Below, piece by piece: positions 25,847 to 48,130 of a stretch of DNA of 64,000 nt; positions within the stretch are counted from its first letter, which is position 1, and the number at the start of each line of letters is the position of its first letter. The notes under the pieces are model-generated. The model saw nothing but the letters and a program-made list of their open reading frames with translations, was not told the origin of the DNA and did no database searches. The DNA is from a virus: the IMG/VR virus record IMGVR_UViG_3300050011_000393, positions 32,668 to 96,667 of that record; one strand, written 5' to 3'. The translations under genes were made by a program, and so were the position numbers.

Positions 25847-26507
25847 ATGGTTATTCGCGTTTTTTATGCTGGTGTCGTTCGCACTGCCATGGCAGGCGAA
25901 GGCCCAGGACAAAGCAACTAAATCGCTGACGCTGACCGTCAATTCCGGCACAGTGGCAATTTCGACGGCCACGATTCCCGGGGGCATGGTCGGGTTGGCG
26001 TATTCCACAACGATTGCCGCGACTGGTGGCCTTTCGCCATATAATTTCACAGTGACTGCGGGAGCTCTTCCGGCAGGATTGACTCTCGCATCCACCACGG
26101 GAATTTTATCCGGAACGCCGACAACCGCAGGGTCCAGTACATTCACGGTTCAGGTGGTCGACGCCGAAACACCGACCGTCACTGCTACCCAGGCATACAC
26201 TCTCGTCATTGTGCCTACACTCACGATCACGACTTCAACCTTGCCCGCGGCTAACATCGGCGTCAATTACTCGACGACCATCGTGGCCACAGGCGGAGTG
26301 AGTCCGTACACATTCGCAGTCACGACAGGCGCGCTGCCTTCTGGCTTGACACTCTCATCGACGGGTGTAATTTCAGGGACGCCTACTTCTGCGGGATCCT
26401 TCTCGTTTACCATCACGGTCACCGACAGCGGGTCTAACATTGTCCGCTTGGAGATCAAAACAAACATCGAAATCGCGGCGGTCATTACGAAGGGCGACCG
26501 CTCGTGA
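25833..26507 (+). CDS. secreted protein with two putative Ig (He_PIG) domains
   Basis: Signal peptide AKA-QD; two GG.SPY.F..T.GALP.GLTL repeats. Confidence 0.85.
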   Translation: MQIRRWLFAFFMLVSFALPWQAKAQDKATKSLTLTVNSGTVAISTATIPGGMVGLAYSTTIAATGGLSPYNFTVTAGALPAGLTLASTTGILSGTPTTAGSSTFTVQVVDAETPTVTATQAYTLVIVPTLTITTSTLPAANIGVNYSTTIVATGGVSPYTFAVTTGALPSGLTLSSTGVISGTPTSAGSFSFTITVTDSGSNIVRLEIKTNIEIAAVITKGDRS

Positions 26508-26845
26508 AATTGATTCGCACAGGGGTTTTGGCTCTCGCGTTGCTGGCTTCGGCCAGCGGCGCGGGGGCGCAGGACAAAACAACGCACTCGTATGCAGTCA
26601 CTGTCGGGCATGTGGTGACCTTATCCTGGACTGCGTCAACGACCACGGACGTGACCGCCTATAATATTTATGTCAGCGGGACTTCAGGTGGGCCATACAC
26701 TCGTATTGGGACCACGCCATTGCCGCAGTTTATGGATTTAGGTGGAATCGCAGGCACAAAATACTTTTATGTTGTGACGGCGGTTGACGGCAACGGGGAG
26801 AGCGCATTTTCGAGCGAAGTCTCGGTCACACTTCCCACGCCATAA
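26504..26845 (+). CDS. secreted fibronectin type III protein
   Basis: Signal peptide AGA-QD; LSWTAS...YNIY...YFYVVTAVD...ES..S. Confidence 0.85.
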   Translation: MKLIRTGVLALALLASASGAGAQDKTTHSYAVTVGHVVTLSWTASTTTDVTAYNIYVSGTSGGPYTRIGTTPLPQFMDLGGIAGTKYFYVVTAVDGNGESAFSSEVSVTLPTP

Positions 26846-26851
26846 TAGTTC

Positions 26852-26879
26852 TTGACATTGTCCGAGAGTTTGATACCAT
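26852..26879 (+). promoter_or_regulatory. sigma70 promoter of tmRNA gene
   Basis: TTGACA-N16-TACCAT with extended TG. Confidence 0.65.
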
Positions 26880-26885
26880 CAGATT

Positions 26886-27360
26886 TGCCGTTTAAGCGGC
26901 TGGTGGAAGGAAATGGTTCCACAAAGAGACTCGGATTGATGGGACGGTCCTAAAACCATAGGGACGAACAAAGGGATTGATGGTAGGCATCACTCCTAAA
27001 TCCAACATCACCAGAGTCTCTTTGTGGGGCCGTTTCGCCCCAAAAGTATAATCGTAGAAAGGCTATTGCTTATCATTCGGACGGGGCTTCGATGCCCCCG
27101 GGTCCACCCGAACGCTAGGAAACCGCAAGGAAGGTCGCCGCAGTGCGGTGGACTCTGAGCACCGTGCCTAGCGTTTCGGTGGGCCCGAATCGGTTTCGAC
27201 GGATGCATGAGAGGTAGTGCTTATTCGGTTCGTCACGGACACGACGTTAAACTGTACCAAACAAACAACAGTCAAGCCCACAAAGCTGGCTAAGGTCCTG
27301 ATGTTTGCGCGTCCTGCGGCATTCGTGCCACAGGCACTCGCAGCCTAAAGGGCTGGGCGG
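26886..27360 (+). ncRNA. ssrA: circularly permuted (two-piece) tmRNA
   Basis: T-arm and 3' acceptor strand CGGGTCC-A-CC (27083-27108) precede 5' strand GGGCCCG...TTCGAC (27181); G3:U70 pair; PK1; tag frame 27271-27348 VKPTKLAKVLMFARPAAFVPQALAA*. Ends approximate. Confidence 0.88.
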
Positions 27361-27388
27361 GAGAGCCCGAAAGGTTCTCCCGTTTTTT
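27357..27388 (+). terminator. intrinsic terminator after tmRNA
   Basis: GCGGGAGAGCC-CGAAA-GGTTCTCCCGT followed by T run. Confidence 0.8.
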
Positions 27389-27405
27389 AATTTACGGAGG
27401 GCTAA

Positions 27406-27636
27406 ATGAGTTCACACAGATTCGACGGATTCACCAAAATTAATTCCGGCCATATCGATGGGGCGCAGTACAACGCTATCGACCATAAGATGCGCGTTCG
27501 CTATCAAAACGGGTATGTCTACGAGGTTCACGGAATTTCTTCGGAAGCCTATCAGGATTTTATGGGCGCGCCATCGCAAGGGGAACACTGGCATGCCCAC
27601 ATCAAGGACAATTACCATGTCGTGCGCGTGAGGTAG
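27406..27636 (+). CDS. KTSC domain protein
   Basis: S.HI....Y....M.V.Y.NG.VYE..GIS...Y..FM.APS.G.....HIK..Y. Confidence 0.85.
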   Translation: MSSHRFDGFTKINSGHIDGAQYNAIDHKMRVRYQNGYVYEVHGISSEAYQDFMGAPSQGEHWHAHIKDNYHVVRVR

Positions 27637-27789
27637 CGGATTTTTTAGTTATCATCGAGCATTGCGAGTCGCAGAAATGTGCTTCGTTGTCGCAGTTGCA
27701 GTGCCACGCCCAGCCGTAGATGCCATCCCACCAAAAAGGCTGACAACCATCCGCAATCGCCAGTTGGAAAATTTCGTCGTGTATCGTCA

Positions 27790-28062
27790 TCAATCGTTCT
27801 CCGGCCGCGCAAGTTCCCCATAAACCGCAGCGGGCTGTTCTTCCCGCAAATCTGAAATCACCGCCCGCGCGTGCCGGGTCGTCGGGGAGTCCGGAATTTT
27901 GAAGACTCTCGCGGGACGATACTCCGCTATCTCTACCCGAAAATCGAAAGAGACTTCGGCTCCGCCATCAAGATGCGATATTGCTTTTGCCAATCGAATC
28001 CGCATTTCGCTGACGGTGGTCGGGACGCCTCGACTGCCTATATTTATGTGCAATTTACTCAT
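27790..28062 (-). CDS. hypothetical protein
   Basis: ATGA-coupled ORF with GGAGG RBS. Confidence 0.6.
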   Translation of the reverse strand: MSKLHINIGSRGVPTTVSEMRIRLAKAISHLDGGAEVSFDFRVEIAEYRPARVFKIPDSPTTRHARAVISDLREEQPAAVYGELARPEND

Positions 28063-28616
28063 ACGGCCTCCTCGGCGTCACGTTGCGCAGATTCTTTTCG
28101 GTTCTTCGGGGCCACGGCTAGGCGAGCTTCGCACCGCGCGATGGCCTCTTTTGCGCGGCGAATCTCTCCGCGCCAGTATGAGACGTTCCACGCCCAAGTT
28201 CTGTGCTGCTTTTCTTTATACCCAAGGCGTCGCTTCTCTTCTGCTTCGTGTTCGGCCACGAGGGCTTCCGCCCGGCTAGCTGCCTCATCCGGAAACTGGA
28301 ACAACTCCGCTTCTTTGGTGTAGCAACTCCCGCTGCCGATGGCGTAGGTTACTTCGGGGATATATTCAGGCCCTCGCACTTGCACCCCCGTAATGAGGTA
28401 TGGAACAGCCTCCCCGACGTATTGATACGTCTGGATACGCCCTGGAGAGCCTTCGTAGCCTCTCTCGCAGCATACGCAGGCGATTGAGACTTCGGAGTCA
28501 TCCCCGAGGATAACGCGCAGCCTGCCGCTTCCTAGGCACTCTGGACAGGTAATCCAGACCTGCTTCGAACCTACTCGGGCACAGTAAACCACATCACCGA
28601 TCTGAAATTTAGTCAT
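28059..28616 (-). CDS. hypothetical protein with CxxCxGxG Zn motif
   Basis: KFQIGDVVY, CPECLGSG...CVCC. Confidence 0.7.
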   Translation of the reverse strand: MTKFQIGDVVYCARVGSKQVWITCPECLGSGRLRVILGDDSEVSIACVCCERGYEGSPGRIQTYQYVGEAVPYLITGVQVRGPEYIPEVTYAIGSGSCYTKEAELFQFPDEAASRAEALVAEHEAEEKRRLGYKEKQHRTWAWNVSYWRGEIRRAKEAIARCEARLAVAPKNRKESAQRDAEEAV

Positions 28617-28624
28617 TTTCGCTC

Positions 28625-29182
28625 CTATGCGAGTACGAGATTGTCCATGGCATCTTGGGCCATAACACCATCATTTTCTTGTAGATAGACGAAAGCCGAA
28701 CTCGGAGACTTGTGTCCCAAGAATTCACTGACCGCGCCGATGCGCTTCGTCACGGCATATACTGCCATGGCGGCACTGTGGCGGAAGACGTGCGAGTGAG
28801 CATAGCTGCTGTGAACGCCAGCAACGGCAAAATACCGAACCAGCGTTTCGTTGTAGTACTGGCGGCTGAGTCCGCCGAAGATCTTGGACAGACCCTTGGT
28901 CGCCGCCAGGGCGATCAGGGGAGTCATGTCGACCGTCGGGTCCTCCGAGATGTGAAGGTTGCGCACGACAACTTTACCGCGCTTGGCTGCGCCGACCCGA
29001 ACGACCCACTTGCCGTCGCGCTGGAAGATATCTTCCCCGCGCAGGTCCAGCATCTGGGAGACGCGCGTGCCAGTGTAGAACATCACCAGCATGGCCATGT
29101 GGTGCAGGTGGCTCTTCTCGGTCTTGGCTTCTTGCGCCGCTCGGAAGACTTTTGCCAGGTCGCTCTCGGGTAAGTAATTCAT
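28625..29182 (-). CDS. short tyrosine recombinase (catalytic domain only, 185 aa)
   Basis: YTGTRVSQ, AKRG, HVFRH, FLGH...Y catalytic residues; AGGAGG RBS. Confidence 0.88.
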   Translation of the reverse strand: MNYLPESDLAKVFRAAQEAKTEKSHLHHMAMLVMFYTGTRVSQMLDLRGEDIFQRDGKWVVRVGAAKRGKVVVRNLHISEDPTVDMTPLIALAATKGLSKIFGGLSRQYYNETLVRYFAVAGVHSSYAHSHVFRHSAAMAVYAVTKRIGAVSEFLGHKSPSSAFVYLQENDGVMAQDAMDNLVLA

Positions 29183-29230
29183 GTCAGTTGCCTCCTGAAC
29201 TGAACCCATTATGGGGGAATGACCTGGCCT

Positions 29231-29270
29231 AGCGCAATAGTACGAAAGTACTGTTTTTCGACTAGTACTA
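29231..29270. repeat. 40-bp direct repeat carrying -35 and GTAC operator (copy 1)
   Basis: AGCGCAATAGTACGAAAGTACTGTTTTTCGACTAGTACTA identical at 35730-35769; minus TTGCGC-N17-CATAAT drives recombinase. Confidence 0.85.
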
Positions 29271-29277
29271 GGGGTGG

Positions 29278-29694
29278 TTACTCTGCCCCTTTTGTCTTGA
29301 TGAAGTGCTCGATTCTGTTTACGCCTGCGCGCGCCCTGCCTGCTTGGGATCTGGCTCGAACATACGCCGTTGCGTATTTGGCGGGCCACTCCGAACGAAA
29401 GAATAACCGAAGTCTTTGGTTTGCGGTTAGCCCAAGCGCGCGTGTTGCGAAGATCTCCACGGAATGGCCTGAAGGGAGATCGTCAAAGCTGCTGGGTTTC
29501 TTCAAATCGAGTTTGTGCTCGAGGACGTAAGCCGCTCCAGCCAGACAGCAGGCGGTTCCGCAGAGGGCTTTTTCATCCCCGAGAACAGAAGAGGACTTGG
29601 TTGGCTGCAGCCAGTCGGACATGTCAAATCGACCTTTTTCTTGCAGGATGAATTTCTGAATCTTTCTCAGCAGCTTTGTATTAATTCCGCTCAT
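29278..29694 (-). CDS. hypothetical phage protein (CGTACCLAG family)
   Basis: FDM..W, CGT.CC.AG, LF motif; AAGGAG RBS. Confidence 0.7.
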   Translation of the reverse strand: MSGINTKLLRKIQKFILQEKGRFDMSDWLQPTKSSSVLGDEKALCGTACCLAGAAYVLEHKLDLKKPSSFDDLPSGHSVEIFATRALGLTANQRLRLFFRSEWPAKYATAYVRARSQAGRARAGVNRIEHFIKTKGAE

Positions 29695-31625: not shown

Positions 31626-31700
31626 TGGTAGTCGGGCGTGGGATTGAACCACGGACCTGGCACTTATAAGGTGCCTGCTCTACCACTGAGCTACCCGACT
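31626..31700 (-). tRNA. tRNA-Ile with UAU anticodon, CCA encoded
   Basis: AGTCGGG/CCCGACT acceptor, GCTC/GAGC D-arm, GGCAC-CTTATAA-GTGCC anticodon arm, GTTCAAT T-loop, ACCA end. Confidence 0.92.
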
Positions 31701-45959: not shown

Positions 45960-46535
45960 ATGCGTTTTTACTCTTATTTGTGGCTTCGAGAAGACGGGTC
46001 CCCATACTATGCGGGAAAAGGCTCAGGTAATAGGGCGTACAAAAGTCATAGACATCGCGGGCTTTGTCCACCAAAAAATCGAGATTTGATTCTTGTGTTT
46101 TTTCATGAATCGGAAGATGAGGCTTTTGGCTCTGAGAGAGCGTTCATTCGCTGGTTCGGCCGCAAAGACTTGGGTATGGGGTGTCTTATAAATCACACGG
46201 ACGGCGGAGATCAACCGCCGAGCGCGAAAGGCCGAAAACGGTCTGCAGCGTTTATTCAAAAAATGAGAGATCGAACTCCAACCATCCCCACGCCCGCAAG
46301 TAGAGAGAAGAATCGGATTGCGCATTTAGGACGAAAGCACACCCAAGAATCAAAAAAGAAACAGTCAGAGAAAATGATGGGGCGGTTGAAATCGGAGGAG
46401 ACCAAAGCAAAAATGTCTTTGGCCCAGATAGGAAATTCTAAATTTAAGGGGCGACATCATACCGCCGAGACCAAGGCTAAAATGTCAGCCATTCGATTTG
46501 AGCGTTACGGAAAAGGAGCGATATGTCGAAATTAG
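45960..46535 (+). CDS. GIY-YIG-like homing endonuclease with NUMOD3 repeats
   Basis: FYSYLWLREDGSPYYAGKG..R, E..FI..FGRKD, N.TDGG, HTAETKAKMS. Confidence 0.88.
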   Translation: MRFYSYLWLREDGSPYYAGKGSGNRAYKSHRHRGLCPPKNRDLILVFFHESEDEAFGSERAFIRWFGRKDLGMGCLINHTDGGDQPPSAKGRKRSAAFIQKMRDRTPTIPTPASREKNRIAHLGRKHTQESKKKQSEKMMGRLKSEETKAKMSLAQIGNSKFKGRHHTAETKAKMSAIRFERYGKGAICRN

Positions 46536-48130
46536 TAAAACATGGAGCAGAGGCCCGCGAGGCTATTTTAAAGGGGGTCGATTTTATAGCCGACGTAGTT
46601 GCTCTGACTGAAGGACCTCGCGGAAGAAATATTATTATGGGACAACGCGCTTTAGGCCAATCACCTCGCATAACTAAAGATGGAGTAAGCGTTGCGAATT
46701 ATGTTGACCCCTCAGATTCCACGGAGCAGATGGGCGCGGATTTAATTCGAGAAGCGTGTCAGAAAACGGATAACTCTGTTGGGGATGGGACTACCTGCAC
46801 CGCCGTTCTTGCTCGCGCTATGGTACACGCAGGGTTTGATCTGATTGATAAGGGCGCTAACCCTATGGCGATAGAGCGCGGGATTCATAAGGCGACCGAT
46901 GTCGTCATTTCTCGTATTCAAAAAATGGCTGTTGAAATCACACCAGAGAAAGTTTTTCATGTCGCAACAGTCTCGGCTCATGGCGACACCGAAATTGGTC
47001 GCTTAGTCGCAGACGCAGTTCAGAAGGCAGGGAAAGACGGAGTAGTGACGGCGGAACCCTCCTCAACCTCCGCAACTTATGTGGAGACCGTTGCAGGACT
47101 GGAGCTCGAAAAATCTAATTTGGTCTCCCCCGCCTTTATCACACACCCTGAAACTATGTCTGCGGAGCTTTCGAATTGCCATATTCTTCTCTGGGAAGGC
47201 GTGATTGCCACTGCGAAGTCCGTCGTGCCGATATTGAAACAACTCAAGGATTTGCAAGACTCTGGCGCTGGCGGCGCGCTGCTAATTATTGCGGGCGGGT
47301 ATGAGGCCGAAGCCTTGTCTTGTATCATCAACAACAAGATCAGCCTCAAGCTGCCTTTGATAGCGGTCAGGATGGAAGCCTACGGAGACCGCCGCAAGGA
47401 GGTCATGCGGGACATCGCGGCATTGACTGGCGGCAAGGCGTTTACAGAAGACCTAGGGCTGAAAATCGATAACGTGAAGTTCGCGGAACTCGGCCAGGCG
47501 CGCAAGGTCGTCACCACCATGGCGAAGACCCAGATCCTCGGCGGCAAGGGCAAGCAGGATGAGGTTGCGGGGCGCGTGGCGCACATTCAAACCCTGATTG
47601 AGTCTGTCTCACCAGCCGAACGCAGTCCGTTGCGTCAGAGGCTCGCTGCGCTGCTGGGTGGCATCACTGTGATCAAGGTCGGGGGCGTAACCGTCACCGA
47701 AATGGAAGAGAAGAAAGACCGCGTCGTGGACGCGCTCTCGGCCGCCAAGGCTGCAGTGGAGTCTGGCATCGTTCCTGGCGGCGGCACTGCGCTCCTGCAT
47801 GCAGCGAAAGTTCTTGATGAGCTGGCGGTTCCTGAAGCCGAAGTTGCGGGTGTGCAGGTAGTGCATACCGCGTGCCATGCAGTTACCAAACAAATTGCAG
47901 CCAATGCAGGTCTCGACGGCGAACTGATTATTGCTCAATTATTTTTATCGCCCGGGGAGCAAGGCTATAACGCCTTCACGGACAAGTTTGAAGACCTCGT
48001 CGAGTCAGGCATCATCGACCCCCTGAAGGTCGTGGTCGAGTCCTTGAAAAACGCTTCGGCGGTCTCATGCTCGATTCTTACCATGGGTGCGACGATCAGC
48101 GAAATCAGACAGGAGAAATCGAATGGCTAA
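46523..48130 (+). CDS. groEL: chaperonin GroEL
   Basis: GPRGRN, ITKDGVSVA, GDGTT, IKVGG.T..EM.EKKDR, GIVPGGG, GIIDP. Confidence 0.97.
   Translation: MSKLVKHGAEAREAILKGVDFIADVVALTEGPRGRNIIMGQRALGQSPRITKDGVSVANYVDPSDSTEQMGADLIREACQKTDNSVGDGTTCTAVLARAMVHAGFDLIDKGANPMAIERGIHKATDVVISRIQKMAVEITPEKVFHVATVSAHGDTEIGRLVADAVQKAGKDGVVTAEPSSTSATYVETVAGLELEKSNLVSPAFITHPETMSAELSNCHILLWEGVIATAKSVVPILKQLKDLQDSGAGGALLIIAGGYEAEALSCIINNKISLKLPLIAVRMEAYGDRRKEVMRDIAALTGGKAFTEDLGLKIDNVKFAELGQARKVVTTMAKTQILGGKGKQDEVAGRVAHIQTLIESVSPAERSPLRQRLAALLGGITVIKVGGVTVTEMEEKKDRVVDALSAAKAAVESGIVPGGGTALLHAAKVLDELAVPEAEVAGVQVVHTACHAVTKQIAANAGLDGELIIAQLFLSPGEQGYNAFTDKFEDLVESGIIDPLKVVVESLKNASAVSCSILTMGATISEIRQEKSNG

Follow-up and report, generated by a model that had tools for sequence, protein, structure and literature searches.

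Stalled ribosomes are freed by tmRNA, which also marks their incomplete products for degradation. The experimentally validated paradigm for the two-piece form is the tmRNA of Caulobacter crescentus (Keiler, Shapiro and Williams 2000, as cited in PMC9004378), and the betaproteobacterial-type two-piece lineage is credited in the same paper to Sharkady and Williams 2004. Buchholz et al. 2022 described the two-piece ssrA gene of the OM43 phage Melnitz, and their ARAGORN census found tmRNA genes in 402 phage genomes, with 133 unique structures; two-piece tmRNAs numbered 53 and came mostly from marine or aquatic phages (PMC9004378). The role proposed for the Melnitz and pelagimyophage tmRNAs is to sustain translation or to tag proteins (PMC9004378). 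Hudson et al. 2014 list mycobacteriophage tmRNAs along with the TLD-only RNA of DS6A (PMC4131195), a 2025 tmRNA database paper includes 79 phage sequences and introduces the Rfam model RF04321 (PMC11915505), and tmRNA genes of Bradyrhizobium elkanii phages are described in a further 2025 paper (PMC12656738). The two-piece tmRNA of phages is an already known, published kind of gene.

The locus studied here resembles the Melnitz and pelagimyophage genes (PMC9004378) in being a complete permuted ssrA gene with an early-type promoter, an adjacent terminator and no smpB. Whereas the Melnitz gene is alpha-type and reported to be controlled by a glutamine riboswitch (PMC9004378), the gene described here is beta-like, gives no Rfam riboswitch match, belongs to soil and peat phages and has a different leader and a different tag. 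The proposed mechanism is that of C. crescentus, in which one precursor yields an acceptor piece and a coding piece that act together in tagging; the Caulobacter tmRNA, in contrast, is cellular and alpha-type with an ANDN-type tag, and its processing and function have been demonstrated, whereas we infer them here. Like the mycobacteriophage tmRNAs (Bxz1 group, DS6A; PMC4131195), this is a phage-borne ssrA gene without a phage smpB, but those RNAs are one-piece or tagless, whereas here the gene is permuted and its tag frame conserved. With the beta-type two-piece tmRNA (RF01850) it shares the order of acceptor piece, spacer and coding piece, a P2 in three parts and a hairpin close to where the tag ends, and a single PK1 is predicted ahead of the tag. 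Unlike RF01850, its family encodes tags of 24–30 codons with a K-L-A-Q-V-V-x-F core in place of ANDExFALAA and, unlike other viral beta-type copies, it has a structured leader of 66–227 nt with an invariant GGUGGA[AG]G. Its distinctive points are the long non-ANDE tag, the invariant leader motif, a 6-nt T-loop and the shuffling of modules. In the literature we found no description of this tag family or of the GGUGGA leader motif, nor of a permuted tmRNA in a soil/peat phage clade with so many members in metagenomes.

A permuted tmRNA gene in a near-complete phage genome

The window, that is, the whole stretch of DNA that was analysed, is 64,000 nucleotides long and corresponds to bases 32668–96667 of a 96,667-bp IMG/VR virus record; positions below are those of the window. 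CheckV puts the completeness of the phage record at 97% (96.7 kb, near-complete). The ends of the record (G000:C1:1-235 and 96451-96667) form an imperfect repeat, 92% over 235 nt, which would fit terminal redundancy or circular assembly of the genome; the IMG/VR label is linear.

Using Infernal and Rfam 15, we found a match to the model tmRNA_permuted (RF04321) at 27050–27348 on the + strand with 70.3 bits, against a gathering score of 47 bits (E = 1.7e-11 for the 64-kb window searched). The match is full-length (model positions 1–213), and relatives of the gene score 57–81 bits. The gene order is permuted: the T-arm and the 3' acceptor strand come first, and the 5' acceptor strand follows after a 72-nt spacer. 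An earlier note on this DNA had read the region as a phage-encoded two-piece tmRNA and had listed its elements with coordinates; the sequence and the alignment to the Rfam model place all of them at those positions. The features of the locus are as follows.

26852–26879 (+): sigma70-type promoter, TTGACA-16-TG-TACCAT, 10/12 consensus positions
26887–26900 (+): 5'-terminal hairpin of the primary transcript (predicted fold), with a hairpin of different sequence at the same place in relatives
26900–26910 (+): leader motif CUGGUGGAAGG, invariant in 10/10 family members
26911–27037 (+): long stable leader stem-loop of variable size, an expansion domain (predicted fold)
27050–27079 (+): P2 strands of the acceptor piece (Rfam alignment, RNAalifold; compensatory changes)
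27083–27098 (+): T-arm GGGGC/UUCGAU/GCCCC, 5-bp stem and 6-nt loop UUCGAU (Rfam alignment)
27099–27108 (+): acceptor 3' strand CGGGUCC (27099–27105) and A73-C-C (27106–27108)
27109–27180 (+): intervening spacer of 72 nt, predicted to be excised, closed by CCGAACGCUAGG/CCUAGCGUUUCGG
27181–27199 (+): acceptor 5' strand GGGCCCG (27181–27187) and D-loop-like AAUCGGUUUCGA; G1 is 27181, the predicted RNase P site
27200–27230 (+): P2 strands of the coding piece (Rfam alignment; pair counts)
27231–27255 (+): pseudoknot PK1, stem 1 27231–34/27243–46, stem 2 (tentative) 27235–38/27252–55
27271–27348 (+): tag frame of 25 codons, resume codon GUC 27271, UAA 27346–48, reading VKPTKLAKVLMFARPAAFVPQALAA followed by the stop
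27355–27391 (+): intrinsic terminator ending the coding piece, hairpin 27355–27385 and T run
27406–27636 (+): KTSC-domain gene (Pfam PF13619, E = 8.5e-14; 76 aa), context only
28625–29389 (−): tyrosine integrase gene, 1.3 kb downstream of the tmRNA gene and near the tmRNA in relatives too

ARAGORN gave a divided result. It makes no tmRNA call in the window, where its only prediction is a tRNA-Ile(UAU) at 31626–31700, but recognizes permuted tmRNAs in six of the relatives; altogether it misses three of nine close members (the window copy, L223 and L319) as well as the distant member L084. The tRNA-Ile gene, on the − strand, is the sole tRNA gene of the phage and has its CCA encoded, unlike the tmRNA gene (ACCC).

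Elsewhere in the 96.7-kb genome no part of the tmRNA gene occurs a second time, and the phage genome contains no SmpB gene. A blastn search of window positions 26000–28500 against INPHARED phages returned zero matches, and a cultured relative was not found that way. A host ssrA gene beside a prophage was considered and ruled out, given a near-complete phage genome with end repeats, phage genes on both sides and no att-like duplicate. Since the tmRNA region is not repeated elsewhere in the genome, it is not an attL/attR remnant, and the gene is the phage's own.

Covariation in the two pieces

Seven members were aligned from P2 to PK1. RNAalifold, unaided, recovered P2, the T-arm, the acceptor stem, the spacer-closing stem and PK1 stem 1, with compensatory changes at 29 of 47 pairs. 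With PK1 stem 2 added, 92% of cells fall in standard pairs, compared with 35–42% in slid controls, where the partners were moved by 1–3 columns. Both sides change at 32 of 51 pairs, so that the fold set out in the earlier note has the compensatory changes in homologs that were looked for. None of 500 shuffles reaches any observed measure; with 7–10 related sequences the shuffle significance is somewhat overstated, a weakness of which the slid-partner control is free.

The two acceptor strands form the 7-bp stem that had been described, with 7/7 pairs, G3(27183):U70(27103) and discriminator A. Five acceptor stems occur in the ten family members (GGGCCCG, GGGCCUG, GGGCUCG, GGGGCCA and GGGUCGG), each 7/7 complementary to its partner, and G3:U70 and A73 are invariant in all ten. 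CCA is indeed not fully encoded: the base that follows ACC is C27109, and the terminal A must therefore be added. The intervening segment, estimated beforehand at about 72 nt, is exactly 72 nt long and has a closing stem that covaries in relatives; across the family the length of the spacer is 58–91 nt.

The 5-bp stem of the T-arm also covaries among the seven aligned members. Its 6-nt loop, correctly read in the window copy, occurs in G003 and L084 as well, the seven other members having the canonical 7 nt. The same 6-nt T-arm is found in L044 and L047, beta-type viral genes that pass the beta cut-off. T-loops that lack the UUC motif (e.g. GGCAGUA, GGCGGUA) were observed in L113, L124, L126, L137, L147, L157, L162, L172 and others; with so many viral permuted tmRNAs of this kind, non-canonical T-loops are frequent in phage tmRNAs.

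Helix 2 contains both of the segments that had been proposed, CAUUCG/CGGAUG and CUUAU/AUGAG, plus an outer segment, AAUCG/CGGUU. Changes on both sides are seen at 15 of the 22 P2 pairs, and the window P2 has one mismatch or bulge. The two predicted stems of PK1 (CGUC/GACG and ACGG/CUGU) are those of the earlier reading. Stem 1 is in both Rfam models and is conserved but nearly invariant. The 4-bp stem 2 is assigned only tentatively, with both-side changes at 3/4 pairs but only 75% of cells paired.

Evolution of the tag reading frame

We find the tag frame as previously read, from GUC 27271 to the UAA at 27346–48 with an LAA end. Every member has a homologous open frame (24–30 codons), all resume codons are G-initial (GUC or GCN) and all tags end in ALAA or AMAA. 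They share a core, K-L-A-Q/K-V-[VIL]-x-F, and have no ANDE motif. The tags that ARAGORN called in six relatives are VKQTLAKVIEFVVPVRSRELAMAA, AKTKLAQVVMFASRTNVASARRLAMAA, AKRKLAQVIAFPGVFAVASARPQALAA, AMPKKLAQVVMFAQRPAAFVPQALAA, AKNKLAQVVMFAKRAVVVPARQYAMAA and AKTKMAKVLAFPAMRTVAPARQFALAA. The core may resemble tags of cyanobacteria and plastids (ANNIVxFxRK...); no such tag strings turned up in a literature search. A second viral permuted-tmRNA group (loci L098, L118, L128, L144, L156, L165 and L169) has long tags of the form ...STGEVTVSGKxVKFSARTVKAESFAV, which end in FAV or LAV, not LAA.

In a codon alignment, pairwise nucleotide differences at codon positions 1, 2 and 3 number 136, 122 and 211, respectively, and 107 of 289 pairwise codon differences in the tag are synonymous. 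The G003 and G002 tags differ by 12 synonymous and 11 non-synonymous codon changes, and the Leu, Ala, Val and Phe codons of the core vary at the third base. The third-position excess and the synonymous changes are the pattern of a translated sequence and count against a pure decoy RNA, in which the tRNA-like domain would titrate host SmpB or AlaRS and shut down host trans-translation, tagging being irrelevant. A phage without SmpB must compete for that of its host, and the window copy has a deviant T-loop and no encoded CCA, as a decoy might; the TLD-only RNA of mycobacteriophage DS6A offers a precedent (Hudson et al. 2014, PMC4131195), with inhibition by this type of RNA attributed there to Mao et al. 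2009. However, a decoy has no need of a tag frame, and this one is uninterrupted in every member, begins with a G-initial resume codon, ends in ALAA/AMAA and shows third-position bias; P2 is also kept, as is the predicted PK1. We consider a decoy very unlikely. Conservation across the clade, helix covariation, the alanine identity elements and the evolution of the tag instead support the earlier reading of a genuine phage two-piece tmRNA with a long tag ending in LAA.

Promoter, leader and terminator

The gene is preceded, as the earlier note had it, by a sigma70 promoter (TTGACA-16-TACCAT with TG), and the distance from TTGACA to the leader motif is equal in the window, G003, G002, G001 and L223. 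The terminator reported after the tag frame was likewise found, and a hairpin with a T run is present in nearly all relatives. GTAC-N4-GTAC boxes lie just 5' of the tmRNA in L223 (reverse strand) and L053/L229. The box in L223, GTACTTTGGTAC, overlaps the -10 region of the tmRNA promoter, and another, GTACTTTAGTAC, lies ∼9 nt upstream of the -35 in G002; there is none at the tmRNA promoter of the window.

The 165-nt leader between promoter and P2 has a predicted folding energy of -75 kcal/mol (z = -7.15). Throughout the family the leader has the same layout: the 5' hairpin is followed by the invariant motif, and this by a stem-loop whose size varies greatly. The distance from the motif to the T-arm is 66–72 nt in G002, L223 and L319, and 154–227 nt in the window, G003, G004, L322 and L326. 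No Rfam family, riboswitches included, matches the leader stem-loop. The consensus of the motif is (C)UGGUGGA[AG]G, with the core GGUGGA at 26902–26907, and L084 is the only one to have it out of 89 other viral permuted tmRNAs whose upstream sequence is long enough. The motif was also considered as the Shine-Dalgarno sequence of a leader ORF, an idea that we dropped because no conserved start codon or ORF follows it.

The GGUGGA core is complementary to the acceptor 3' end, UCCACC (27103–27108). For the precursors of the window copy, G004 and L084, the MFE folds contain this pairing. The complementarity reaches 7–8 bp in three members (G002, G004 and L084), and in L319 it comes to 12 bp with one bulge. 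The 3' end of L223 is CUCCACAG, where the pairing register shifts to GUGGAG/CUCCAC. Both GGUGGA and its 3'-end partner are invariant, and covariation therefore cannot test their pairing; a 6-nt complement within 500 nt is, moreover, not rare by chance. We regard the predicted pairing as a plausible folding or maturation helix, not as a finding, and put its chances somewhat short of even.

Relatives and genomic neighborhood

A portal protein search retrieved 35 related viral loci. All four of the related records that are long enough to include the region have the gene (67–81 bits), as do two more near-complete relatives that came from alignment of the KTSC protein, so that a homolog is present in 6/6 related phage records spanning the region. 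Pattern scans added three further sources, namely a metagenome copy (L179/L223), the MAG contig L319 and the distant member L084. The family as used here comprises ten sequences, the window copy included.

The scans differed in yield. Family-specific DNA patterns in viral contigs returned only four relatives that had already been found. The metagenome scan was too loose, with at least 120 matches that were nearly all due to chance, and yielded L179/L223, L229 and L293. Of 27 matches in genome contigs, 26 were chance matches without a T-arm, and L319 alone was real. A generic acceptor pattern (GGGC.../...GUCC) occurs in at least 119 IMG/VR contigs (loci L061–L173). Nearly all of the 98 distinct pattern loci examined have a T-arm, and most have ANDExFALAA-type tags. 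The same pattern gave one real gene among 185,579 species-representative genomes, on a terminase-bearing contig, and this acceptor type appears to be strongly virus-enriched.

L319:3700-8000 (contig LFW28_41) comes from a MAG labeled 'uncultured archaeon' and holds a family tmRNA with the leader motif and the tag AKLASKVVEFVKRTASIYTVNATMPHALAA. Genes for the small and large terminase subunits lie ∼2 kb from this tmRNA, with a tRNA-Met between, and mark the contig as phage-type; the 'archaeal' tmRNA gene is probably that of a binned phage contig.

In the window, tail-like Fn3 genes lie just 5' of the tmRNA gene. Downstream are the KTSC-domain gene, the tyrosine integrase, an SLT lysozyme, a GroEL gene, an ice-binding-like gene and an SU10-type portal gene. 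The KTSC gene is 3' of the tmRNA terminator in all clade members, immediately so in most and ∼0.7 kb away in G004, and this neighbor is kept while the upstream flank varies. Around other viral tmRNA loci (122 scanned, 106 with at least 700 nt downstream) no adjacent KTSC gene was found. The KTSC protein as a partner of the tmRNA was set aside: the adjacency is missing at other viral permuted-tmRNA loci and reflects clade synteny only. The GroEL-type chaperonin (46523–48130, +) has more than 120 metagenomic relatives at 66–77% identity, often on contigs of 92–100 kb, many of them of ∼97 kb. The number of these relatives on contigs of such length indicates that the phage clade is abundant and mostly undescribed.

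The integrase gene raises the question of whether the tmRNA sequence is chiefly an attachment site or host remnant, the phage integrating into host ssrA by means of the nearby integrase and keeping the tmRNA sequence only to restore the host gene. tmRNA genes are classic integration sites (PMC4383910), and the integrase gene, 1.3 kb away, stays near the tmRNA in relatives. The locus, however, comprises the entire gene and not a 3' fragment, has a promoter, a leader and a terminator of its own, and has no att-like duplicate in the genome. Related phages diverge strongly in its sequence, yet pairing and peptide frame are preserved, and the acceptor pattern has the single occurrence among species-representative genomes given above. 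We judge an attachment site or host remnant as the chief role to be very improbable and treat the locus as a tmRNA gene of the phage, which may nonetheless have a dual role.

Relationship to the beta-type lineage

Of the lineage models, beta_tmRNA (RF01850) fits every member best and aligns end to end (model positions 1–331), whereas its gathering score of 84 bits is above all of the scores, 48.8 bits for the window and 29–71 for the others. Within the clan, beta outcompeted alpha_tmRNA (RF01849) and cyano_tmRNA (RF01851) in every search. The gene is beta-like but below the RF01850 membership score. Over 31 nt, the window module of T-arm and 3' acceptor strand is 97% identical to that of four canonical beta-type viral genes, 6-nt T-loop included. 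A stricter pattern gave thirteen viral genes, which mostly pass the beta cut-off. By contrast, no nucleotide similarity to viral permuted tmRNAs outside the family was detectable in P2, PK1 or the tag. Compared with L223, the window copy is 99% identical in the tag segment (one synonymous change) and 62% identical in the tRNA-like domain and 61% in the spacer. Such unequal identities indicate that modules have been exchanged within the tmRNA gene by recombination between related phages.

The earlier note had raised the possibility of an independent permutation, and the gene could in principle be the product of a fourth one, made in phages and lying outside the alpha, beta and cyanobacterial two-piece lineages. 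All lineage models do fall under their cut-offs (beta at 29–71 bits vs 84, alpha and cyano lower), an ANDE motif is missing from the tag, no other family has the leader, and the dissimilarity of P2, PK1 and tag to other viral permuted tmRNAs points the same way. Against this, the beta model aligns over positions 1–331 and is always best in its clan, the family has the beta architecture (acceptor piece first, a single PK1, a tag-region hairpin, no PK2–4), the T-arm and acceptor 3' module is nearly identical to that of genes passing the beta cut-off, and module exchange within the gene connects the family to the common viral pool. A fourth permutation is quite unlikely, and this part of the earlier note was not borne out. 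From the best-fitting model, the shared T-arm/acceptor module and the module exchange, a divergent, recombining branch of the beta-type viral pool seems the more likely origin, as judged from sequence comparison.

Discussion

The best account of the locus is a phage-owned permuted ssrA gene that belongs to a divergent branch of the beta-type permuted tmRNAs of uncultivated phages and has a clade-specific tag and leader. On the sequence evidence we consider this account very likely.

By analogy with the Caulobacter two-piece tmRNA, host RNA polymerase would make a single precursor of ∼500 nt from the sigma70-type promoter. RNase P would then cut 5' of G27181, the 72-nt spacer would be removed after C27108 and the CCA-adding enzyme would complete the 3' end. 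The two pieces, whose pairing shows covariation, would be held together by the 7-bp acceptor stem and helix P2. The identity elements G3:U70 and A73 would allow charging by host AlaRS. Host SmpB and EF-Tu would deliver the tmRNA to stalled ribosomes; the phage encodes no SmpB, and use of the host protein is therefore probable. Translation would resume at GUC 27271, in a frame that bears the mark of selection, and would add Ala and the 25-residue tag, whose ALAA end would serve as a ClpXP-type degron. The invariant leader GGUGGA may pair with the acceptor 3' end during folding or maturation. For the phage, the gene might back up host ssrA or redirect tagged proteins, as the earlier note proposed.

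Several consequences follow for the study of these genes. Because the tag is non-ANDE, mass spectrometry could distinguish proteins tagged through the phage RNA from those tagged by the host, and the conserved leader motif provides a specific mutational target. Censuses based on ARAGORN miss some permuted tmRNAs, as they would three of the nine close family members and L084 here. The L319 case bears on tmRNA genes reported from archaeal assemblies (PMC11915505).

Permuted tmRNA genes are common in uncultivated phages, to judge from the 119 or more IMG/VR contigs found with one narrow pattern. It is conceivable, although we think it rather unlikely, that this clade of ∼97-kb soil/peat phages has evolved a specialized two-part tmRNA system, in which GGUGGA, paired with the acceptor 3' end (UCCACC), would control how the acceptor piece folds, is matured at its 3' end or is charged, and the non-ANDE tag would be read by an adaptor or protease other than that of the host tag. 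If the tag is indeed read separately, the products rescued by the phage would receive a phage-chosen fate and would be distinguishable from host-tagged ones.
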